Shown here: one piece after another, positions 3,950-43,866 of the stretch
Layout: each line of letters opens with the position of its first letter
How positions within the stretch are numbered: position 1 is the first letter of the stretch
The notes under the pieces: generated by a model
Databases searched by the model: none
Told to the model about the DNA's origin: nothing
The model's input: the letters and a program-made list of their open reading frames with translations, nothing else
Translations under genes and position numbers: made by a program
NCBI GenBank assembly: GCA_028718635.1
Contig: JAQULK010000001.1
Location: 24,626-88,625, forward strand
Length of the DNA: 64,000 bases
Source: Minisyncoccota bacterium
GTDB taxonomy: Bacteria; Patescibacteriota; Minisyncoccia; Phycocordibacterales; UBA9973
Direction of reading: 5' to 3'

Positions 3950-3983
3950 AACCTCACCCTGCCCTCTCCTTATTAAGGAGAGG
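3950..3983. repeat. Family P palindrome, left TIR of DUF559 unit
   Basis: CCTCACCCTGCCCTCTCCTTATTAAGGAGAGGG, reverse complement of the 4359-4395 copy. Confidence 0.8.
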
Positions 3984-4335
3984 GTTTAGAATCAAGTTCA
4001 GTAATAATTTTTAAAATTACTCCATCAATGTTAACATTTATTTCATTATTCCAAAAACGAATTACTTTTATACCAAACACAGACAAATAATCTGACCTCT
4101 CTGCATCATATTCTTTATTTTCAATATGTTGTGATCCATCTATCTCAATCGCCAATTTTTTAAAAGGACAATAAAAATCCAAAACATATGGGCCAACAGA
4201 ATATTGTCTTTTTACTTTAAAACCTAGTTGATTATTTCTTACTTTATTCCAAAGAATCACTTCTTGGGGAGTTTGGGAACGTCTTAATAAGATGCGCTTA
4301 GTTAAATTCTTTGATTTATTATAGAAAACCGTCAT
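3973..4335 (-). CDS. DUF559 (Vsr-like / PD-(D/E)XK endonuclease fold) protein; C-terminus SKPSP is encoded inside the flanking GC-rich palindrome
   Basis: 120 aa; ...IEIDGSQH...GIKVIRFWNNEI pattern typical of DUF559; flanked by perfect 33-bp terminal inverted repeats (3950-3983 and 4359-4395). Confidence 0.65.
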   Translation of the reverse strand: MTVFYNKSKNLTKRILLRRSQTPQEVILWNKVRNNQLGFKVKRQYSVGPYVLDFYCPFKKLAIEIDGSQHIENKEYDAERSDYLSVFGIKVIRFWNNEINVNIDGVILKIITELDSKPSP

Positions 4336-4358: not shown

Positions 4359-4395
4359 CCCCCTCTCCTTAATAAGGAGAGGGCTGGGGTGAGGT
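4359..4395. repeat. Family P palindrome, right TIR of DUF559 unit
   Basis: CCCTCTCCTTAATAAGGAGAGGGCTGGGGTGAGG. Confidence 0.8.
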
Positions 4396-8358: not shown

Positions 8359-9726
8359 TTAATTAATTTTCTCTTTAATATAATTTTTTAAATCTACCAC
8401 TTTTATTCTCTCTTGTTTTGCTGTATCTCGATCGCGGACAGTCACAGTGTCGTCTTCCAAAGTATCAAAATCAACCACAATACAAAATGGCGTGCCGATT
8501 TCGTCTTGTCTTCTGTATCGCTTCCCGATGTTGCCATTGTCATCCCAAGCTACTCTTCCAAATTCTTCTTTAAGTAATGCATAAACTTTTGTATTCGCAT
8601 ATTCCACAAGCTCTGGCTTATTTTTTAATAATGGCGAAACAGCACAAATAACTGGCGCAATACTTGGTTTAAGCTTCAAAAATACTCTGACGTCTTTCTC
8701 ACTTGCCCCGTCGGAAGCTTCTTGCTTTCCTTCGGGGTCTTCTGTGTAAGCCGAGACGAGCAATGCCAAGAGCGCGCGCCCCACTCCGAAAGTCGGCTCT
8801 ATGACATGAGGAATAATTTTGGCGCCTTTTTCTTCATCCAAATAATCAAGCTTGTGGTTTTTTAAATCAAAATCTGTCCTATATGCAAGCCCGAAAAGCT
8901 CGCTTCTCCCGAAAGGAAAATCAAATTCAAAATCAATCGTCCGGCTGGAGTAATGCGCTCTGTCTTTTTTGGACACTTCCAATTCGTGGACTTTGTTCAT
9001 ATCGATCCCCACCTCTTCCATCCAATCAAGCATTTCATCTTTCCAATATTCAAAATATTTTTCCCAATCTTCACTCCTAATAAAATATTCTATCTCCATT
9101 TGTTCAAATTCACGGACTCGGAAGATAAAATCGCGGGGATTAATTTCATTTCTGAATGCTTTGCCTATTTGCGCCGTACCAAAAGGAAGTTTGGGATGGA
9201 AAGCATCCACGGTATTTTTGAAATTTACAAACATTCCTTGCGCTGTCTCCGGTCGAAGATAGGAAATTGAGGAAGAATCATCAGCCGCGCCGACTTTCGT
9301 CTGAAACATCATATTGAATTTTTTTTCTTCTCCTAATTTTCCCTTACATTCGGCACATTTTATTTTGTCTTCAATTTGATCGGCTCGGAATTTTTTTCGG
9401 CATTTCTCGCACTCCACCATCGGGTCCGCAAAACCCGCCACGTGGCCAGAGGCTTGCCAGACTTCTTGACGCATCAAGATGGATGCATCAATGCCGTACA
9501 TATCACGGCGAGAATCCACAAATTTTTTCCACCAATTTTGGGTAATATTATTTTTCAAAGCCACTCCAAAATGCCCGAAGTCCCAAGTGCCTCCTAGACC
9601 GCCATAAATTTCTGAACCCTGAAAAATAAACCCTCGTCTTTTACAGAGCGAGACTATTTTTTCCATCAGATTATTCTTTTCTTCCTGCCTGCCGGCAGGC
9701 AGGTCTTTTTTGTTTTCTTCTTTCAT
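8359..9726 (-). CDS. glyQS: Glycyl-tRNA synthetase (alpha2 dimer type)
   Basis: 455 aa; class II aaRS motifs, N-term FQGSEIYGGLGGTWDFGHFG, C-terminal anticodon-binding region. Confidence 0.85.
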   Translation of the reverse strand: MKEENKKDLPAGRQEEKNNLMEKIVSLCKRRGFIFQGSEIYGGLGGTWDFGHFGVALKNNITQNWWKKFVDSRRDMYGIDASILMRQEVWQASGHVAGFADPMVECEKCRKKFRADQIEDKIKCAECKGKLGEEKKFNMMFQTKVGAADDSSSISYLRPETAQGMFVNFKNTVDAFHPKLPFGTAQIGKAFRNEINPRDFIFRVREFEQMEIEYFIRSEDWEKYFEYWKDEMLDWMEEVGIDMNKVHELEVSKKDRAHYSSRTIDFEFDFPFGRSELFGLAYRTDFDLKNHKLDYLDEEKGAKIIPHVIEPTFGVGRALLALLVSAYTEDPEGKQEASDGASEKDVRVFLKLKPSIAPVICAVSPLLKNKPELVEYANTKVYALLKEEFGRVAWDDNGNIGKRYRRQDEIGTPFCIVVDFDTLEDDTVTVRDRDTAKQERIKVVDLKNYIKEKIN

Positions 9727-9738
9727 ATATTCGATTTA

Positions 9739-11670
9739 TTACTTTACGACGACCCCCCCGCCTGCGGGAAAGGCCACATCATTATCGAGTCGGGTGTTAA
9801 GGCCGGCTTTGCTTACTTTAATATCTACATTAGCAAAATCATCATGACCCGTCAAAACTGCTTCATTTATAATGAGTGGAATTGTATCGACTTGAGAAAG
9901 CGAGGGTTTAAAAGAAACTTGGAAAGAGACGCTGCGGGCAGGTTCTGTAATTCCAGAACCTTTAGGTATTCTATCTACGTTCCAAGTAATTTCTCTTGTA
10001 GAATCATTGTATGTCAGATCCTCTCCAGTTGGAGAAATTGGTCCAACAAAAGTCGTCCATGAAGGCAGGGTGGCTTTTACCTGCGCTTTTGAAATACTAT
10101 TAGCGGTATTGGAAAGCGTCCAAACGACAGTGTAAGTAGTAGACTGTTCGGCTTTCGGAGGTATCGGACCAGTGTTGGTAAAAGGTCCCGAATAATAAAG
10201 CGCTTTTCCGGAAAAACCTACATCCGAAATAATGTGCACAACCGCTCCGCTCGAATTATCAAGTTCATTTACGGCAGAACCTTCGGTGGCTTGATTGCCG
10301 GAGATGCTTATATCTATGTTAATAGTTGGATTTGCTAATATTCCATTAGATGCAGAAAACAAAGAAAGCGGAGAAATAGAAAAGGAGACAGAACCAGAAT
10401 CTCCCGGGTTCAATTCCTTTAATTGACTTTGAGAATTTTTATCCCAAGTAATAGTATCTTTAGATGAATCATAAAAACCTCGCTGCGTATTTACAGTGCT
10501 GCGATTAAAAGCATTTCCAGAAATCTTTGCTTTTATTTGCAAGTCATTCACTTTTGTATCTAAATTATTTAAATAACGAATTTCTGCCTTGATTGGCGTC
10601 TTTGTATCTACCGCATATTCTGTCTGGGATACGCCATTAATAAAAATATTCGCTTCAATAAAGGGTTTCTTAATCATCACAATATTCTTTATAGAATTTA
10701 AAACAACATCAATGACAGATTTGTCTGTACTGGATTGCGAACCGCTTGAAATATTAAAAGTTTTCTCTTCCCCGTCGAAAACGCCGACCATTTTCCCAGT
10801 GATAGTAATATCGTGCTCTGCTCCGGGCGCAAGATCACCCAAGTCCCAAACATTGTTGCCAAAAGAGGGTGCGGGCGTAGAATTTCCAAAAACAAATCCG
10901 AAAGGATAATCAGCTTTAACGAGTATATTAGAAATTGTTTTAGTAGCGTTTAGCGTAGCTTTGACATTCAGTGTAATGTCTTGATTGGGGCTGATCGAAA
11001 GAGGAGCATCTACTCCCAGATTTATCGGAGTGGAAGTTATATTCACTTTGAAATCTTTTTCTTTTACAAAAATGGCATTGGAGCCCGCTACTCTATACTC
11101 AAGACTTATTTTTATCGGGCGAATGCTTCCCTGTTCTCCAAAAAGAACTAATTTTACATTTTCATTGCGAGCCGCTCCAGCTGGAATCTCTCCGAGCGAA
11201 GTGCGAAAATGCTCGGCATCAGAAGACAGATCAATGTCTCCTCCTTTGGGATATTCCATAACAAGATCTGCTAATTCTAGTGCAGTAGTGTTTCTGTTTA
11301 CAATTCCTACAACTAGAGAAAGTTCTTCACCCCCGGCTGTAAAATTATTTCCTAGAATGGAAATATCTATATTGTTGTTGGAAACGGTGTTCCCCCCAAC
11401 AAAAAATACATAACCGGCATAACCCAAGGTTAAAACAAAAAAAACTATTGAAAAAATAAAAAATTTCTTAAATCTGGATGTTTTCATAAAAAACTTATTT
11501 TCGTCTTCAGATTCAATTTCTTCTTTTGTTTCCCAAGAATCTGACGCTTCATTTTTATATAAGTTGGAAAACACATCTCGATGCTCTATTTTAGTCTGAT
11601 AATTCTTGCTAAAAAGCTTGCTTTTTAAGTCTTCAATCTTATTGAGCTTTTTCATGTCATCTAATGGCAT
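9739..11670 (-). CDS. Hypothetical membrane-anchored protein with large Ser/Thr/Asn-rich extracytoplasmic domain
   Basis: 643 aa; single N-terminal TM helix (FFIFSIVFFVLTLGYAGYVFFV) after an acidic cytoplasmic segment; no recognisable catalytic motif. Confidence 0.4.
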   Translation of the reverse strand: MPLDDMKKLNKIEDLKSKLFSKNYQTKIEHRDVFSNLYKNEASDSWETKEEIESEDENKFFMKTSRFKKFFIFSIVFFVLTLGYAGYVFFVGGNTVSNNNIDISILGNNFTAGGEELSLVVGIVNRNTTALELADLVMEYPKGGDIDLSSDAEHFRTSLGEIPAGAARNENVKLVLFGEQGSIRPIKISLEYRVAGSNAIFVKEKDFKVNITSTPINLGVDAPLSISPNQDITLNVKATLNATKTISNILVKADYPFGFVFGNSTPAPSFGNNVWDLGDLAPGAEHDITITGKMVGVFDGEEKTFNISSGSQSSTDKSVIDVVLNSIKNIVMIKKPFIEANIFINGVSQTEYAVDTKTPIKAEIRYLNNLDTKVNDLQIKAKISGNAFNRSTVNTQRGFYDSSKDTITWDKNSQSQLKELNPGDSGSVSFSISPLSLFSASNGILANPTINIDISISGNQATEGSAVNELDNSSGAVVHIISDVGFSGKALYYSGPFTNTGPIPPKAEQSTTYTVVWTLSNTANSISKAQVKATLPSWTTFVGPISPTGEDLTYNDSTREITWNVDRIPKGSGITEPARSVSFQVSFKPSLSQVDTIPLIINEAVLTGHDDFANVDIKVSKAGLNTRLDNDVAFPAGGGVVVK

Positions 11671-11691
11671 ATATTGGATTGTAACATTTTT

Positions 11692-12270
11692 TTACAAATG
11701 AGTCTCCTTGAGAGCTTTGTTTATTTGATGCAATACCTCAGGTCTTGATTTGGAAATTTCAAACACTAAATTTTCTTCAAATGGAGATTTGATAAGGTTT
11801 TGCAACACTTCATTTTCTCCGATGTATCCCAAATTGTTGAGGATGCGCAAAACAATAATAGCTTCGAGGTTTCTTAGGTCATTAGTTCCTGCTTTTTCTA
11901 AAACAGAAAGTCCATTTATCAAATCGGCAAACAAAGCTTCATTGGGCTCGATGCCGGCAAGCAATCTTCTTAATAAGGAAGCAATATTGGAAAAAACTTC
12001 AAAAGTTTTAGGATTTTTGGTAAGGTGTTCTAAGGCATTTGTTTTTGAAGCGCTGGTGACTCTCCAGAAATTCAACCCTTGCACAAGGTCAATTTTTACA
12101 TAAGCAAAATCTTGCAAAACGAAACGTAGTTTGGAAGATATTTTCCTCACGCCTTGAGCCGTGGCATATATCATGCCTAGATCGCGAGTAAAAATATAAT
12201 AATACCTCCCCGCTTCGCCAGAATTTTTGCTACCTAATATTATCCCCTCCGTGTGATAAATGTGATGCAT
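11692..12270 (-). CDS. recO: DNA repair protein RecO (short)
   Basis: 192 aa; N-terminal OB-fold region TEGIILGSKNSGEAGRYYYIFTRDLGMIYATAQGVRK resembles RecO N-domain. Confidence 0.5.
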   Translation of the reverse strand: MHHIYHTEGIILGSKNSGEAGRYYYIFTRDLGMIYATAQGVRKISSKLRFVLQDFAYVKIDLVQGLNFWRVTSASKTNALEHLTKNPKTFEVFSNIASLLRRLLAGIEPNEALFADLINGLSVLEKAGTNDLRNLEAIIVLRILNNLGYIGENEVLQNLIKSPFEENLVFEISKSRPEVLHQINKALKETHL

Positions 12271-12911
12271 TAAAATTCCTCTTCGTTATTTTTTTCAAAA
12301 TTTTTGAATGCTATATTGGCTACGCTTATTAAATATATTTCTGGAACTCTGTGTGAACTGCCAAAATGGTTTAGCATCCCGTCGTGCACAGGAAAACATA
12401 CTTTTGGATTTATGCTTAAAGCATAATTAACGGCATTCTTGATATTAGCCCAAGGGCCCGCCACAGGCAATGCCAAAATCTCAACCGGTTTGCCAGGATT
12501 GCAAAAAGAATCTCCGGGATAAAAGAATCTTTTATCAATAAAATATCCCGTATTTAATACCTGCCCAAAATCCTGATAAATCTCTTCGTGTTTGCAATCG
12601 CAAGCTTCTATTTCTACCCCGGAAAAATCTTTTAAGGTTTTATCTTTCAAGACTTCATATTTAATTCCCGCTTTTTTCAATAATTTTCCAACTCCGTCAT
12701 TTGTAATAATAATAACATTTGGATTATTTTTTATAATTTCTTTCAATGATTCAACATGGATGTGATCTCCATGTTCGTGAGTTATTAAAATTAAATCTAC
12801 ATTTTTCTCTTGCATGTGCTCTTTTTCGGTATAAAAACCCGGATCAGTCATTATCTTTTTGCCATTCGTCTCTACCACCAAGCAACAATGCCCAAGTTTT
12901 TTGATTTTCAT
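12270..12911 (-). CDS. MBL-fold metallo-hydrolase
   Basis: 213 aa; HEHGDHI (HxHxDH) metal-binding motif; overlaps recO start and ileS stop by 1-4 nt (operon). Confidence 0.6.
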   Translation of the reverse strand: MKIKKLGHCCLVVETNGKKIMTDPGFYTEKEHMQEKNVDLILITHEHGDHIHVESLKEIIKNNPNVIIITNDGVGKLLKKAGIKYEVLKDKTLKDFSGVEIEACDCKHEEIYQDFGQVLNTGYFIDKRFFYPGDSFCNPGKPVEILALPVAGPWANIKNAVNYALSINPKVCFPVHDGMLNHFGSSHRVPEIYLISVANIAFKNFEKNNEEEF

Positions 12912-15900
12912 TTATTTATTTTATCAATTCTTACCTTAAAATACAATTCATCGATTTTTACCTCTTCCCCGTCATTTTCTTTTAACTGAATTTCCTTTGC
13001 AATTACAGCTTTTTTCAACTTTTCCTCAAAATTTTGGATGAATTTTTTACCAATATCTGAAGTTTGAACAATAAGCCTGATAAATTCACTAGGAGTTAAT
13101 CCTTTCTTCTTTCTAAAATCTTGAATTGCTCGCACAAGCTCTCGATAATCCCCCTCTTGTTTCAACTCTGAAGTGATGTTTATATCAAGCTCTACTTCGT
13201 TCTCTATATTTTTATTTTCTATAACTTCTTTTACATTTAATTCATCCTTTATAAGTTCAACATATTCTTGGTCTAAATTAAAATCTTTAATTTCTAATTT
13301 GCTAAGCGGTTGACGAACTTTTATCCCTGCTTTTTGTCTCGCCTCCAGACCTTGAGTTACAATTCTTCTTGTAATTTGCATATTTTTTACAACTTCGGGT
13401 TGAAAACTAAGTTCAGAAACAACAGGCCACTCTGCCAAATGCACGCTTCCTCCATCGCCTTCTGTTTTTAATTTCAACCAAATATCTTCGGCTGTGAATG
13501 GCGCAAAAGGTGCTAAAATTTTAACAAGAGTTTCTAATATATAATACAAAGTTTGCCTTGCCTCTTTGTCTCCATTCTTAATTCTTTCTCGTGAACGACG
13601 CAAGTACCAAGTAGAAAGATCTCCGATAAAATCTTTAATTGCTCTCACTGGTTCGAGCAATTTGTAATCGTCCATCTTTTTTGTAGATTCACTAATCAAT
13701 TCATCCAACCGCGCCAAAATCCAAATATCAAGAACGTTAGACCTCACCCCCTCGCCCCTCTCCTTATTAAGGAGAGGGGTTGGGGAGAGGTGAATTGTCT
13801 CTAAGTCTTTATCTCTATACAGTTCATAAAACGCCAGCACATTGTAAAGCAACCCAAAAACCTGGCTGTAAAGCAGGGCAACTGTCTTCTCATCAAAGTT
13901 TTTTGATTCCCCTGGCTGGTTTACTGAATACATCCAAAGACGCAAGGTGTCCACTCCGTATTTTTCTATCATTTCCCAAGGATCAACAATATTACCGAGG
14001 GATTTAGACATTTTTTTACCAACAGCATCCATCAAATGTCCGAGACAAATTACATTTTTGTATGCCTTTCCTCTCCCCATAAGGATACCAACAGCGTGTA
14101 AAGTATAAAACCATCCGCGAGTCTGGTCTATCGCTTCTGAAATAAAATCTGCGGGGTATAAAATCTTGGTCTCCTTAAATGGGTAATTATCTTGCGCAAA
14201 TGGCATACATCCGGAATCAAACCAGACATCCATCACCTCGCGAGTGCGTATCAGTTTGCCACCACATGCTTGCCCTGAGCCCACCCGATGGGCACAAATT
14301 AAATTTACTTCATCAATATATGGCTTGTGTAAATCAAGTTCAAAGTCTGCATTGTGAGGAAATGGAACAAATGGCAGCTCGCGAACTTCGGCATTATTAA
14401 ATTGCCTAAATTCTTTCACAAATGCTTCTGTGTTTGGAAAATGATAAGGCTTGTCATCAGGAGTAAACAATCCGGCGTTTACAAATAAAAGCCATGCGGG
14501 TCCACCATGTGTCACAATTATGATATTTTTATTTTTGTATTTATTTTCAAGCTCGCATAATACTGCTCCAGTACGACACGCTACCTCCGCAAAAGATTCC
14601 CCATTTGGAATTTTATGATGGAACCATCCATTGCTAATCGAAAGAACATATTTATGATATTCACTCCATAACTTTCCATCAAAATCCCCAGGGTTAAATT
14701 CCTGCAATCTATCATCAAAAATTATTTGTTCATCCTTGAGATGAAGTTTTTCGTTCAAAATATTTACTGTTTGTCTTGTGCGAGTAAAAGGAGACGAAAT
14801 AATTAAATCAATTTTTTCACTAAGAATTTTTTTAGCAACCTCTGTTACTTGTTTCTGACCTTCTGGACTCAAACTGTCATCAATTTGGTTCTTGAAACTT
14901 ACGAGACCAGCCAAGTTAGCTTCAGTTCCACCATGCCGCATCACAAAATATTTATTCCCAGACTTTTTGGTTTTATTTTTTAAGTCTTCAATGCTTCCGA
15001 TGACATCCACTCTTTTACAGGATTCGCAAATCCAAACTGGCAGGGGTGTTCCCCAATACCGCTCGCGAGAGATCGCCCAATCTTTAATTTCACGAAGCCA
15101 TTCTCCAAAACGACCATCCCGAATATGCGCCGGTTCCCAGTTTATTTCTTTATTCTCAGCTATCATTTTTTCTTTTATTTTTGGATCAGAGACTTTTATA
15201 TACCAAGAATCCCGGGCATAATAAATAAGCGCCGTATGGCAGCGCCAACAATGCGGATAGGAATGTTCATATTTTTCTTTTTTTAATAAAAGCCCACGAT
15301 GCGCTAAATCTTTTATCACATCCACAGCCACATCTTCGTCGCGTACAAATCTGCCTTCAAATATTCCTGTACCCGGTAAAAATTTTCCGTCTAGACCGAC
15401 GAGATGGTGCTTCGGCAAACCAACCTTCGTGCCAAGTTCAAAATCATCCTGCCCATACATCACTGCCGTATGCACTACTCCAGTACCGTCTGCGGTCGTC
15501 ACAAAATCCGCTCCGTAAACCTTAAAGGCTTTTTCTAATTTAGGTTTTTCATTTTCAGAAATTGTGTCCTTTAAATATGGATATAATGACTCATATTCAA
15601 GACCAATTAAATCTTTACCTTTTATCTCCTTGAGTATCTTGTATTCTCCATCTATTACGGAAAGTCTTTCTTTGGCCAAAATTAAAAATTCTTTTTCTAT
15701 TTCTATTTTTACATAATCAATATCTTCCCCCACAGCCAAAGCCACATTCCCCGGCAAAGTCCATGGAGTAGTGGTCCAAGCGAGAATGTAGGTGTTGGCG
15801 GAAATGTTACTTTTGCGGGGTGTCTCGCAGGCTGACGAGCCGAGAGGCAGCGCTCCGTCAGCAGACGGAGACAGCGACCCTGCAGAAGTAATGTTTCCGC

Positions 15901-16546
15901 TTAACACTCTAAACTTCACATACACCGATAAATCTTTTACATCTTCATATCCCTGCGCCAGCTCGTGCGAAGACAAAGCTGTTCCACAACGCGGACACCA
16001 AGGCACAACTTTATAATCTTTATAAAGTAAATTCTGTTTATTTATTTCTTTAACAACATTCCAAACAGATTCGATATATTCATTGTGATACGTCACATAT
16101 GGATGCTCTTGATCCACCCAATATCCGATGCGATGAGTAAATTTATTCCAAACATCCAAATATTCCCAAACGCTTTCTTTGCATTCTTGATTGAATTTGG
16201 CAACTCCATATTCTTCAATCGCTTTCTTAGAATTCAACCCAAGTTTTTTTTCTACTTGAAGTTCTACTGGCAACCCGTGGGTGTCCCATCCGCCTTTTCT
16301 CCGCACATGAAAACCTTGCATAGTTTTGTATCTGGGAATTGCGTCCTTGAATGCTCTAGCTTCCAGATGATGAATGCCTGGCTTGCCATTGGCCGTCGGC
16401 GGACCTTCAAAAAAAACAAATTCTCCTTGAGGCGACTTTTTTGCCAGAGATTTCTCAAAAGTTTTATTTTCTTTCCAAAACTCCAAAATCTTCTCTTCGC
16501 GCAAAGCTGATTCGCTTTTTTTATTTTGTATATTTTTTTCTTCCAT
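12908..16546 (-). CDS. ileS: Isoleucyl-tRNA synthetase (eukaryote-like type 2) with an inserted histidine-phosphatase (PGAM-like, RHG) domain and two GC-rich in-frame insertions; likely start at ATG 16544-16546 (MEEKNIQNKK)
   Basis: GPPTANGKPGIHH (HIGH-type), editing-domain WTTTPWTLPGN, DWAISRERYWGTPLP, KMSKSLGN; between the zinc knuckle ICESC and HKPYIDE lies VMRHGGTEANLAG...IIIVTHGGPAWLL, the RHG...HG signature of histidine phosphatases. Confidence 0.9.
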   Translation of the reverse strand: MEEKNIQNKKSESALREEKILEFWKENKTFEKSLAKKSPQGEFVFFEGPPTANGKPGIHHLEARAFKDAIPRYKTMQGFHVRRKGGWDTHGLPVELQVEKKLGLNSKKAIEEYGVAKFNQECKESVWEYLDVWNKFTHRIGYWVDQEHPYVTYHNEYIESVWNVVKEINKQNLLYKDYKVVPWCPRCGTALSSHELAQGYEDVKDLSVYVKFRVLSGNITSAGSLSPSADGALPLGSSACETPRKSNISANTYILAWTTTPWTLPGNVALAVGEDIDYVKIEIEKEFLILAKERLSVIDGEYKILKEIKGKDLIGLEYESLYPYLKDTISENEKPKLEKAFKVYGADFVTTADGTGVVHTAVMYGQDDFELGTKVGLPKHHLVGLDGKFLPGTGIFEGRFVRDEDVAVDVIKDLAHRGLLLKKEKYEHSYPHCWRCHTALIYYARDSWYIKVSDPKIKEKMIAENKEINWEPAHIRDGRFGEWLREIKDWAISRERYWGTPLPVWICESCKRVDVIGSIEDLKNKTKKSGNKYFVMRHGGTEANLAGLVSFKNQIDDSLSPEGQKQVTEVAKKILSEKIDLIISSPFTRTRQTVNILNEKLHLKDEQIIFDDRLQEFNPGDFDGKLWSEYHKYVLSISNGWFHHKIPNGESFAEVACRTGAVLCELENKYKNKNIIIVTHGGPAWLLFVNAGLFTPDDKPYHFPNTEAFVKEFRQFNNAEVRELPFVPFPHNADFELDLHKPYIDEVNLICAHRVGSGQACGGKLIRTREVMDVWFDSGCMPFAQDNYPFKETKILYPADFISEAIDQTRGWFYTLHAVGILMGRGKAYKNVICLGHLMDAVGKKMSKSLGNIVDPWEMIEKYGVDTLRLWMYSVNQPGESKNFDEKTVALLYSQVFGLLYNVLAFYELYRDKDLETIHLSPTPLLNKERGEGVRSNVLDIWILARLDELISESTKKMDDYKLLEPVRAIKDFIGDLSTWYLRRSRERIKNGDKEARQTLYYILETLVKILAPFAPFTAEDIWLKLKTEGDGGSVHLAEWPVVSELSFQPEVVKNMQITRRIVTQGLEARQKAGIKVRQPLSKLEIKDFNLDQEYVELIKDELNVKEVIENKNIENEVELDINITSELKQEGDYRELVRAIQDFRKKKGLTPSEFIRLIVQTSDIGKKFIQNFEEKLKKAVIAKEIQLKENDGEEVKIDELYFKVRIDKINK
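13742..13797. repeat. Family P full-length nested palindrome, in-frame inside ileS
   Basis: CCTCACCCCCTCGCCCCTCTCCTTATTAAGGAGAGGGGTTGGGGAGAGGTGAATT; encodes ...LTSPQPLSLIRRGARG... segment of IleRS. Confidence 0.75.
15817..15888. other. Second GC-rich hairpin-containing in-frame insertion in ileS editing domain
   Basis: GCTGACGAGCCGAGAGGCAGCGCTCCGTCAGC nested in GCAGG...CCTGC; encodes SGNITSAGSLSPSADGALPLGSSACETPRKSN absent from canonical IleRS. Confidence 0.5.
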
Positions 16547-16760
16547 AATTTTGTATTTTAAAAAATAAAACCCGTCCTCATGCAAATAAAAATAATTGCA
16601 CAAGGACGGGCTTCGCCGTGGTACCACCTTGCTTTTTACCCGCCTTTGGCGGGGCTTCTCATTTAAAGGGTTCTACTTTATTGCTAGGTCTTGCCTAGCA
16701 ATATTTCTTCCCAAAGCTCCGAGGCGATACCCTCTTCAACGCTTACTATTACAATATAAC
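16547..16760 (-). promoter_or_regulatory. T-box-like riboswitch leader of ileS (T-box sequence + intrinsic terminator/antiterminator)
   Basis: Minus-strand RNA reads ...GCAAGGUGGUACCACGGCGAAG (T-box consensus AGGGUGGNACCGCGG) immediately followed by hairpin CCCGUCCUUGUGCAAUUAUUUUUAUUUGCAUGAGGACGGG + UUUUAUUUUUU, then ATG of ileS about 25 nt downstream. Confidence 0.55.
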
Positions 16761-20657: not shown

Positions 20658-22331
20658 CTACATTTTCTTCGGAGCCGTAATGCCGAGGAGGTACAGACCG
20701 TTTTTCATCACAAAAGAAAACGCGTACGTCAGAGAAATTTTATATCCAGAACTAGAATCTTCTTTATTTACTATTACCGTATTTCCATAAAAGCTATTAA
20801 AGGCACGGGCGACTTCTATTAAATAATTCGCAATATAGTGCGGTTCGTATTCTTTCGCGGAACGGAAAACAATTTCCGGAAATTTATATAATAATTTTTC
20901 TACTTCAAAAATTTCCTCTCCGAAAGCATGCGGGTCCGGCAAGATATTTTCTTTTTGGGCTTTTTCTAAAATTGAATTTGCCCGGGCATAAGCATATTGC
21001 AGATACGGCCCAGAATCCCCTTCAAAAGAAATTGATTTTTCGAAATCGTAAATGATATCCCCGCCGATTCCTTGCTTAAGGATGGAATATTTCAAGGCAG
21101 AAACGCTCACATCATTTGCCACTTTTTCTTCTTCCTGCGGAGAAAAATCCCTATTTGTCATTTTTTCCAAAATAGCGTCGCGAGCATCGTTCAAAAGCGA
21201 TTCGCCAGTTATCACATTCCCCTTCCTAGACCCCATCTTGCCGGTAGGAAGGCGCATCATGCCGTGAGTAATATGTTTCATCTTTTCCGCATGTTCTTTG
21301 TTGATCAAGGAAATAGCTTTCATAACAACGCGCATATAATCCTTCTGCTCGTTGGCAGTAACCATAATAGACAAATCCATATCTGGAAAAGTTTTGAATT
21401 TTTCTTCCGCCAACCCGAGATCTTTGGTTTCATAAGTGGGCAATCCAGCAGAAGTAATGAAAACTCTGGTGTGCAACTTAGAGTCGTATTTCTCTGCTTT
21501 GAAGACAATCGCTCCATCAGATTCTTCAAAAATTCCCATATTTGCATTCACAATTTCTCGCCCAATATCCGCCATCACGCTTTCTAGAAAATAAAAATCG
21601 AACTTCGTGCCTAGCATTTTATATAGATCTTCGAAGGTTTCCATCGTCACCCTGAAACCCCATTCATATATTTCCGTTATTTTTTTGTCTTTTTTGTCGT
21701 CCTCTTTTATATAAAGTTTTTTATTTATTTCATCTATCTCTTTCTTTATTTCCTCATCAATTTCATAAAGTTCCGCGCCTCTGGCGTAAGCTTTCCCTAT
21801 GTTTGACGCCTGCAGAGCATTTGACCCCGCTTTGCTTTGCAATTTTTCGTTATCCATAAGCCCATAAATAGCTTTAGCTACATGCAGGCCGAGGTCTCCT
21901 TGGAAATTAGCCCGTGCAATCTTGGCTCCGGAGAATTCAACTAAACGCGAGATTGATTCCCCGATAGCATTGCTCATCAAATGTCCAATGTGAAAAGGCT
22001 TGAAAGGATTCGGGTCCGTATATTCAACCATTATTTTTTTTCCTTCCAATGAATTATTTTTCCCAAAATCTTCCGGATTATTTAAAATTTCTTCGACTCT
22101 ATTTGCGAAAAACTTCCTCGATAAATGGAAATTTATAAATCTGCCAACCATTTCTATCTTTTCTATTTCTGGCAATTTATTTTTTTCTAATTTTTCCAAA
22201 GATTCTTTTGCATTTTCTAAAGATGAAATAAAAGTGTAATCTCCATTTTTGAGATCTTTGGGATGCGTCAAGACAAAATCGCCTTCAATCTTTAAAATTT
22301 CCTTTATCCAGTTTTTTATTTTTTGTTCCAT
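20658..22331 (-). CDS. argS: Arginyl-tRNA synthetase
   Basis: 557 aa; PNPFKPFHIGHLMSNAIGE (HIGH), C-terminal DALS-type anticodon-binding domain. Confidence 0.85.
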   Translation of the reverse strand: MEQKIKNWIKEILKIEGDFVLTHPKDLKNGDYTFISSLENAKESLEKLEKNKLPEIEKIEMVGRFINFHLSRKFFANRVEEILNNPEDFGKNNSLEGKKIMVEYTDPNPFKPFHIGHLMSNAIGESISRLVEFSGAKIARANFQGDLGLHVAKAIYGLMDNEKLQSKAGSNALQASNIGKAYARGAELYEIDEEIKKEIDEINKKLYIKEDDKKDKKITEIYEWGFRVTMETFEDLYKMLGTKFDFYFLESVMADIGREIVNANMGIFEESDGAIVFKAEKYDSKLHTRVFITSAGLPTYETKDLGLAEEKFKTFPDMDLSIMVTANEQKDYMRVVMKAISLINKEHAEKMKHITHGMMRLPTGKMGSRKGNVITGESLLNDARDAILEKMTNRDFSPQEEEKVANDVSVSALKYSILKQGIGGDIIYDFEKSISFEGDSGPYLQYAYARANSILEKAQKENILPDPHAFGEEIFEVEKLLYKFPEIVFRSAKEYEPHYIANYLIEVARAFNSFYGNTVIVNKEDSSSGYKISLTYAFSFVMKNGLYLLGITAPKKM

Positions 22332-43718: not shown

Positions 43719-43866
43719 CCCCCTAAATCCCCCTTGTCAGGGGGACTACCTCACCCCTTGCTTTCCCCCTCTCCTTAATAAGGAGAGGGGCTGGGGAGAG
43801 GTGAATTCCTCCCCTGACAAGGGGAGGGCAGGAGGGGTTGGGAGGGGGTCAGGAGGGGTTGAATTT
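43719..43866. repeat. Composite of three tandem family-P palindromes in the pilB upstream intergenic region
   Basis: CCCCCTTGTCAGGGGG ... CCCCTCTCCTTAATAAGGAGAGGGGCTGGGGAGAGGTGAATT ... CCTCCCCTGACAAGGGGAGG ... GGGAGGGGGTCAGGAGGGG. Confidence 0.8.

Follow-up and report, generated by a model that had tools for sequence, protein, structure and literature searches.

Few enzymes are as conserved as the aminoacyl-tRNA synthetases, and apart from the editing domain they rarely have additional catalytic domains within the Rossmann fold. This family and the histidine phosphatases are both already known, as are bifunctional proteins with this phosphatase fold (PFKFB and the Rv2228c type). The closest described systems are, on the synthetase side, the isoleucyl-tRNA synthetase (IleRS) of Thermus thermophilus (1ILE) and the type-2 enzyme of Priestia megaterium (8C8W, IleRS2) and, on the phosphatase side, PspA/iPSP1 of Hydrogenobacter (4IJ5), the mycobacterial GpgP Rv2419c (4PZ9), Bacillus PhoE (1H2E) and CobC (6NRU, 3HJG). 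We analyzed ileS, the IleRS gene in a 64,000-nucleotide stretch of contig JAQULK010000001.1 (assembly GCA_028718635.1, a Minisyncoccota bacterium; the whole stretch is hereafter called the window), and found that its product combines the two: a domain of the histidine phosphatase superfamily sits in frame inside the catalytic domain of the synthetase.

The IleRS of the window shares with 1ILE and 8C8W the domain order, the Cys pairs of the CP3 region and the type-2 C-terminal region. Where these two structures have loops of about 5 and about 3 residues between the Cys pairs, however, the IleRS of the window has a 208-residue enzyme domain. PspA, Rv2419c, PhoE and CobC have the fold of this insert in common (Foldseek E about 1e-13 to 1e-10; TM-score 0.66-0.73) and the same RHG...R...E...H set within about 200 aa, at 22-27% identity to the insert. 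They are free-standing proteins, whereas the insert is embedded in the catalytic domain of another enzyme. A literature search that covered part of the journals found no account of a synthetase with an inserted histidine phosphatase.

The host synthetase and the position of the insertion

The longest open reading frame (ORF) of ileS has 1239 codons (12908..16627, minus strand), opens at GTG 16627 and is unbroken. Translation probably begins at ATG 16546. The resulting product of 1212 aa matches, at 100% identity, a protein in NCBI that comes from a metagenome-assembled genome of Candidatus Pacebacteria (MAG; 671,958-bp contig). Protein positions are counted from this ATG and equal the ORF numbering (from GTG 16627) minus 27. 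Conservation was read from an alignment of the 120 best IleRS homologues, which are 63-72% identical. The features of the gene are as follows.

12908..16546, minus strand: ileS, a type-2 (eukaryote-like) IleRS of 1212 aa plus stop (ORF, TIGR00392 and NCBI match)
14339..14962, minus strand: in-frame insertion of 208 residues, protein 529-736, ORF 556-763 (alignment to 1ILE and 8C8W)
14471..14947, minus strand: match to Pfam His_Phos_1 (PF00300), ORF 561-719 (E = 1.8e-32; 113.1 bits against a gathering threshold of 21.7)
14930..14938, minus strand: RHG motif with Arg537, the predicted nucleophile His538 and Gly539 (each in 120/120 homologues)
14780..14782, minus strand: Arg589, predicted second phosphate-binding Arg, the first R of RTRQT (120/120)
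14699..14701, minus strand: Glu616 (in LQE), predicted acid/base (119/120)
14507..14509, minus strand: His680 (in THGG), predicted second catalytic His (120/120)
15017..15028, minus strand: first Cys pair of the CP3 zinc knuckle, C507-E-S-C510, aligned to T. thermophilus C461/C464 (about 105/120)
14264..14296, minus strand: second Cys pair of the CP3 zinc knuckle, C751...C761, aligned to T. thermophilus LACACGG, C502/C504 (about 104-105/120)
15038..15094, minus strand: CP2-CP3 linker REIKDWAISRERYWGTPLP, shortly upstream of the knuckle, homologous to yeast IleRS 453-ARDWNVSRNRYWG-465
16367..16378, minus strand: class I signature motif GIHH, of the form GXHH instead of HXGH (seen in the sequence)
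14000..14014, minus strand: KMSKS motif, intact (K845-S849, invariant in the homologue alignment)

The 208 residues were delimited by alignment to the two solved structures. Against T. thermophilus IleRS, ORF residues 460-555 align with 389-482 and ORF residues 764-822 with 488-538; the alignment to the P. megaterium enzyme breaks at the same place, where residue 475 joins 479. The junctions fall between KTKK and SGNKYF and between NADFE and LDLHKPY. On this alignment the phosphatase emerges at the tip of the CP3 zinc knuckle, between the two Cys pairs, in the Rossmann fold. CP3 links CP2 with the latter half of the Rossmann fold; in Thermus IleRS it has a zinc-binding motif (PMC7191050). The stretch IKDWAISRERYWGTPLP of the linker upstream is nearly invariant in the homologues and is the counterpart of the yeast CP2-CP3 linker, which lines the pocket of reveromycin A, a compound reported to occupy the tRNA-Ile binding site (PMC7955072).

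The original prediction had described an IleRS with an in-frame domain of the histidine phosphatase fold that follows the zinc knuckle and precedes the HKPYIDE/DVWFDSG region, and the profile match, the structure model and the survey of orthologues described below all agree with it. The motifs that it quoted are present on the minus strand: ICESCKR (15011-15031), VMRHGG (14927-14944), RTRQT (14768-14782), IIIVTHGG (14501-14524), HKPYIDE (14309-14329) and DVWFDSG (14210-14230). Its position and sizes needed revision. It had placed the domain at 14000-14650 with no strand given, shifted by about 300 nucleotides relative to the insertion, and that interval holds only about half of the insertion together with the KMSKS region. 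It had also counted about 170 extra residues, where the alignment to 1ILE gives 208, and had taken the canonical linker to be 60-70 aa long, where CxxC and HRPY(I/V)D are separated by about 29 residues in T. thermophilus IleRS.

The host was assigned to IleRS from TIGR00392 (864.7 bits against an NCBIfam cutoff of 621.4) and to type 2 from its scores against 8C8W (766 bits) and 1ILE (728 bits), compared with about 313-318 bits for type-1 IleRS. Both class I signatures, GIHH and KMSKS, are present, as are the CP1 editing motifs WTTTPWT and GTGVVHTA, which are conserved in the homologue alignment. Judged from these motifs and from its anticodon-binding and C-terminal domains, the synthetase part is complete, and the host IleRS presumably charges tRNA-Ile as usual.

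It was noted that GIHH, in which positions 1 and 3 of HIGH are exchanged, also stands in the homologue consensus. GXHH is known and functional in IleRS2, where it confers mupirocin hyper-resistance (bioRxiv 10.1101/2023.01.31.526100). Membership in the mupirocin-resistance enzymes MupA/MupB was rejected (NF000257/NF000258, 775-777 bits against 1900), and the window's protein is related to them as an IleRS2 only.

Fold, conservation and distribution of the inserted domain

The PF00300 match lies between two tRNA-synt_1 segments in the Pfam annotation. We modeled the insert alone (residues 527-739) with AlphaFold2 (AF2) from an 82-sequence alignment and obtained a predicted local distance difference test score (pLDDT) of 91.5 and a predicted TM-score (pTM) of 0.90, so that in the model the domain folds on its own. 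A Foldseek search of the PDB returned 292 chains at E<=0.001, and all of the top matches listed were branch-1 histidine phosphatases. The best was the phosphoserine phosphatase PspA (4IJ6/4IJ5; E about 1e-13, TM-score 0.73), followed by the glucosyl-3-phosphoglycerate phosphatase Rv2419c, a histidine-family phosphatase of the riboflavin pathway, TIGAR, PhoE, CobC and the bisphosphatase domains of PFKFB. A sequence search ranked the solved relatives likewise, at the 22-27% identity given above. Membership in the superfamily is thus indicated by the profile (PF00300), by the catalytic motif set in the alignment and by the alpha/beta fold of the AF2 model.

Within the superfamily, the insert fell under every curated family cutoff of NCBIfam. 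It scored 91.7 bits against 162.9 for the CobC alpha-ribazole phosphatases (TIGR03162) and 61.4 against 350 for PspA (NF045917), even though no solved structure is closer than that of PspA. The models for cofactor-dependent phosphoglycerate mutase (dPGM) gave 59.3 against 225 (NF038349, archaeal dPGM) and 56.4 against 261 (GpmB, NF002901), and TIGR01258 had no match. Because all curated cutoffs were missed, no substrate can be transferred from the known families. By these profile scores the insert is a superfamily member outside any characterized orthologous group and not a true phosphoglycerate mutase. The description "PGAM-like" used in the original prediction therefore holds for the fold and fails for the mutase, since the dPGM cutoffs were missed and the closest solved relatives are phosphatases.

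We assessed the conservation of the catalytic residues in the homologue set and in a survey of loci from other species. In addition to the residues in the feature list, N544 was found in 120/120 homologues. Arg537 and His538 were kept in 80 of the 81 domain matches at 80 further species-representative loci, across which the five core catalytic residues are conserved. Averaged over the insert, the consensus frequency was only 0.56, compared with 0.80-0.89 for the IleRS core. An invariant catalytic set amid such fast-evolving surroundings is what a working enzyme would be expected to show, and the alignments indicate purifying selection on the catalytic residues. Their invariance in IleRS that are only 40-45% identical in the core calls for selection of this kind on the phosphatase chemistry. 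Among the complete copies examined, all keep the five core catalytic residues, and a fourth copy in one protein (P0133) is cut off; the accessory residues N544, E650 and R658 are kept too, being substituted only in the first copy of P0169 and the third copy of P0133. From this pattern the insert is predicted to be catalytically active, with His538 as nucleophile and a phosphomonoester as substrate.

PF00300 was found in 120/120 of the best IleRS homologues, whose named sources are Paceibacteria, Nomurabacteria, Minisyncoccia or Patescibacteria. When GTDB was scanned with a single genome standing for each species, a relative of the insert was encoded in at least 570 genomes. The best 80 of these were taken as the locus survey, and all were Parcubacteria/Paceibacteria-type MAGs, including the 693,530-bp contig of RAAC4_OD1_1 (AWSN01000001). 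IleRS sequence stands directly on both sides of the insert in 80/80 loci, and no free-standing His_Phos gene was found beside ileS within +-6 kb in them. The domain occupies the same site in IleRS only 40-45% identical in the core, and the pairwise divergences of insert and core are correlated (r = 0.56; 57 sequences). These data fit an old insertion of mainly vertical descent; every close IleRS homologue that was sampled from the Paceibacteria-type (Parcubacteria/OD1) lineages of the candidate phyla radiation (CPR) has it. In the window itself, a hidden Markov model of the insert matches one ORF, ileS.

We then characterized the distribution of the domain outside this site. The insert alone was searched against 1.84 billion cluster representatives and gave 967 matches at E<=1e-10. 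Class I synthetase flanks were found for 91 of the best 150 of the 967, and the others were stand-alone proteins of about 190-220 aa or fragments. Some IleRS carry two copies, the second lying in a loop of the anticodon-binding domain (P0185 and P0194, protein about 914-937) or in the loop after WFDSG (P0169, about 802). Tandem arrangements were also observed, including four copies in a valyl-tRNA synthetase (ValRS) fragment (P0133) and three two-domain proteins of the same subfamily (P0210, P0215, P0220). A neighbor-joining tree of the inserts is star-like; the ValRS copies of site A, the TsaC copies and the tandem copies of P0133 each group together in it. It resolves these groups and not the number of independent captures in IleRS.

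The ValRS of Magasanikbacteria-type CPR vary in the presence of the domain. Among the nearest ValRS homologues found with such a ValRS fusion as query (P0270-P0389), about one third carry PF00300 (1050-1095 aa), and the rest do not (866-900 aa). Two insertion sites were found, one after DTWFSSGLWTFSTLGWP and one in CP3 between CxxC and DTLDTWFSS. A comparison of an insert-less locus (L083; valS 10001-12604) with insert-bearing ones (L085/L086; valS 10001-13168), whose neighborhoods are perfectly syntenic, showed a clean insertion of 173-181 residues in proteins about 80% identical elsewhere. The ValRS insert has a GC content of 0.457, compared with 0.405 in the remainder of valS. No target-site duplication was obvious in the DNA at the ValRS insertion junctions, and no free-standing His_Phos gene was found in the 10 kb on either side of the valS that lacks the insert. 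A JGI entry for such a ValRS is labeled "valyl-tRNA synthetase/broad specificity phosphatase PhoE", and the NCBI label of the IleRS is "class I tRNA ligase family protein".

A fusion of the domain to TsaC was seen in only four clusters. It was noted that the TsaC/Sua5 proteins of CPR are a fusion hub (P0174, P0390-P0506), most often joined to MGMT and also to TruB, 2H cyclic phosphodiesterase, methylpurine (DNA) glycosylase, Nudix and GNAT. A theme of adenylate-forming enzymes, considered from the TsaC-His_Phos fusion, was downgraded because the TsaC of CPR fuses to many unrelated small enzymes.

Other elements in and beside ileS

The ileS gene of the window contains two further in-frame insertions. 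A palindromic repeat, CCCCTCTCCTTAATAAGGAGAGGGG, lies at 13739-13798 on the minus strand (core 13755-13779), is read as HLSPTPLLNKERGEGVRS and sits in a loop of the anticodon-binding domain. The same loop holds the second phosphatase copy of P0185 and P0194, and a few homologues have related repeat-like peptides there (HLTPSPLSLLRRGVGERS, EKALPLGSPRQGLE). Other copies of the palindrome at 43766-43807, 4360-4383 and 3962-3984 lie outside ORFs of at least 150 aa and are apparently intergenic. By analogy, the element is reminiscent of the Rickettsia palindromic elements inserted into genes. The other insertion is a 34-residue segment of the CP1 editing region, SGNITSAGSLSPSADGALPLGSSACETPRKSNIS (15800-15901, minus strand), which is a potential hairpin, has a GC content of 0.57 against about 0.38 for the gene and is predicted to be disordered (pLDDT<50). 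At this CP1 site, about 12 of the 120 homologues have the same segment, about 35 have other peptides of 20-35 residues and 71 have only 3 residues.

The region downstream of ileS also varies. In a subclade of the IleRS-phosphatase proteins (P0015, P0023, P0045, P0097, P0115) the C-terminus is extended by an HD domain (1317-1365 aa), and the extended ileS (6001-10068 in L001/L002) is directly followed by recO. The window has at the equivalent place a separate 213-aa gene of the metallo-beta-lactamase fold (12270-12911), the start of which overlaps the ileS stop by 4 nucleotides. Across the 80 loci, the metallo-beta-lactamase-fold gene was found downstream of ileS in 11, the HD fusion in 5 and recO in 64. 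Near ileS in the window are the genes of an arginyl-tRNA synthetase (20658-22331, minus strand) and of a class II synthetase whose anticodon domain is of the HGTP type (8359-9726, minus strand), both of normal size. Scanning the complete window for Rfam families and tRNAs gave no matches, and in a composition profile of the window the ileS insert did not look foreign.

Proposed activity and comparison with known systems

We consider it about an even bet (probability roughly 0.5) that the domain is an autonomous, active phosphatase module whose substrate is a soluble phosphomonoester and not isoleucyl adenylate (Ile-AMP), co-expressed and co-localized with the synthetase. One polypeptide would then hold two enzymes, an IleRS2 and a branch-1 histidine phosphatase. 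Following the chemistry of the family, His538 would attack the phosphomonoester to give a phospho-histidine intermediate, with the phosphate held by Arg537, Arg589 and His680, and water would then release the phosphate. Glu616 would act as acid/base, a role that we assume from the family alignment and from textbook knowledge of Glu89 in dPGM. The Ile-AMP in the synthetic site would not be a substrate of the phosphatase, and we infer that the two active sites are independent. Embedding in IleRS, or in ValRS in other CPR lineages, would provide obligatory co-expression and co-localization with no channeling through a fixed geometry. An autonomous module is favored because the insertion sites differ in geometry, because ValRS works without the domain, because copies multiply in tandem, because small molecules are the substrates of all close structural relatives and because the embedded domains are slightly acidic.

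Several points weigh against this explanation. The phosphatase activity and the substrate are both features that we infer from sequence. The recurrent hosts seen among the best 150 of the 967 matches are IleRS and ValRS only, plus a few TsaC, and this confinement argues for a specific link to synthetases instead of mere co-expression. No second IleRS or His_Phos copy was found in the 64-kb window, which is the region that was searched. The insertion site lies about 25 residues past the linker of the tRNA pocket, so that, on the alignment with yeast, proximity to the tRNA 3' end is possible. The full-length AF2 model (1200 aa), from which the relation of the two domains would be read, was poor (pLDDT 68, pTM 0.42), with a badly modeled Rossmann fold, and gives no geometry for the two active sites.

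A tentative alternative, which we would not bet on but take seriously, is that the phosphatase is functionally coupled to aminoacylation and acts on something that the synthetase binds or makes. Candidate substrates would be a 2'/3'-phosphate on the 3' end of the tRNA (which would be healed ahead of charging), a nucleotide that arises as product or by-product, such as AMP or a relative of it, the adenylate of a non-cognate amino acid, or a residue of the synthetase itself that has been phosphorylated (protection against kinase toxins). The original prediction had suggested aminoacyl-adenylate or a nucleotide second messenger as a possible substrate, and both suggestions are speculative. Coupling would account for fusions of the subfamily being almost all to IleRS and ValRS, for the recurrence of insertions at several independent sites and for the presence of the domain in every close IleRS homologue sampled from Paceibacteria-type genomes. 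The IleRS site, moreover, comes right after the linker of the tRNA-binding/reveromycin pocket, and the best NCBIfam matches include a nucleotide-like phosphatase (CobC) and an RNase H/acid phosphatase fusion family. The TsaC of CPR, whose partners are mostly nucleic-acid-related, also fuses to His_Phos, but this fusion carries little weight because TsaC is a promiscuous hub. The variation among sites, one of which is in the anticodon-binding domain, allows no single geometry, and coupling also sits poorly with functioning ValRS orthologues that lack the domain and with tandem multi-copy forms. The net charge of the embedded domains, used as a proxy for RNA binding, is slightly acidic, which gives no support for binding to an RNA backbone. 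To our knowledge, no histidine phosphatases act on RNA ends or acyl-adenylates, which also counts against coupling. More speculative is the proposal that CPR repeatedly and independently wired an active phosphatase into IleRS/ValRS for a step tied to tRNA charging; such steps could possibly be the removal of a 3'-end phosphate, the destruction of a nucleotide or adenylate by-product, or the reversal of an inhibitory phosphorylation of the synthetase.

It appears unlikely that the domain is a neutral or selfish passenger, a phosphatase gene that landed in a tolerant surface loop by illegitimate recombination and persists with no benefit. The tolerance of this ileS for other in-frame loop insertions (the palindromic repeat and variable CP1 peptides of 25-35 aa), the polymorphism of the ValRS insert among close relatives and the faster evolution of the insert compared with the core are what such a passenger would leave. 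A passenger is harder to reconcile with catalytic residues that are invariant across IleRS lineages down to 40-45% core identity and with the lack of an insert-less IleRS among the 120 closest homologues.

Similarly, we regard as improbable a pseudo-enzyme with a structural use, such as a dimerization or assembly module or a lid on the Rossmann fold. Many branch-1 histidine phosphatases are homodimers, and the subfamily includes the tandem two-domain proteins mentioned above, both of which count for this explanation. Pseudo-enzymes, however, normally lose residues such as the catalytic set and N544, E650 and R658, which are retained here. The original prediction had left room for an inactive, structural domain, an option disfavored by five catalytic residues that are invariant or nearly so in the 120 homologues and at the 80 further loci.

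It is very improbable that the insert is the cofactor-dependent phosphoglycerate mutase of the cell, housed inside a housekeeping gene. The fold is that of the PGAM superfamily and CPR genomes are highly reduced, but the insert lies far under the dPGM cutoffs and its nearest structures are phosphatases, not mutases. In addition, the ValRS genomes with and without the insert both carry two genes for cofactor-independent phosphoglycerate mutase near valS, and therefore the domain is not needed as a glycolytic mutase there. An assembly chimera, a frameshift artifact or an intein, in favor of which nothing was found, can be dismissed given the continuous frame, the identical NCBI protein, the same architecture with IleRS flanks in 80/80 species loci, the residue-by-residue alignment of the flanks with solved IleRS around a complete enzyme fold, and the lack of any Hint, intein, LAGLIDADG, HNH or other endonuclease family among the Pfam matches at E<=0.01, as the original prediction had anticipated for the intein.

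With an autonomous phosphatase module as the preferred explanation, these results describe a second, apparently active enzyme inside an essential IleRS across a large lineage (at least 570 species genomes), and further acquisitions of related copies at different loops of the same enzyme and of ValRS. If the domain is autonomous, it would represent a clean natural domain insertion at the tip of a zinc knuckle and a marker trait for the lineage. If it is coupled to charging, it would be a new accessory activity (quality control or repair) of class Ia synthetases, and may bear on how ultra-small symbiotic bacteria sustain translation. The ValRS pairs with and without the domain, such as that of GCA_017991415.1 and the JGI 3300056788 contig, are natural controls, ready for comparative genomics.

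Three known systems come close to this arrangement and differ from it in distinct ways. The Rv2228c-type RNase H/CobC-like acid phosphatase (NF005567) joins a phosphatase of the same branch to a nucleic-acid enzyme and is among the best NCBIfam matches for the insert, although at 75 bits against a cutoff of 326; its fusion is end-to-end and with another partner, whereas the case in the window is an insertion into IleRS. The NCBI exception model NF040702 ("ileS_w_GNAT") is a precedent in which IleRS has an additional catalytic domain, but that domain is a GNAT (N-acetyltransferase), and the window's protein is a non-member (322 bits against a cutoff of 1999). PFKFB, which is among the fold matches, is the classic bifunctional protein with a branch-1 histidine phosphatase domain. 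Its fusion is a tandem one with opposing activities on one metabolite, whereas the host in the window is a tRNA synthetase with no evident substrate in common with the phosphatase that it carries.

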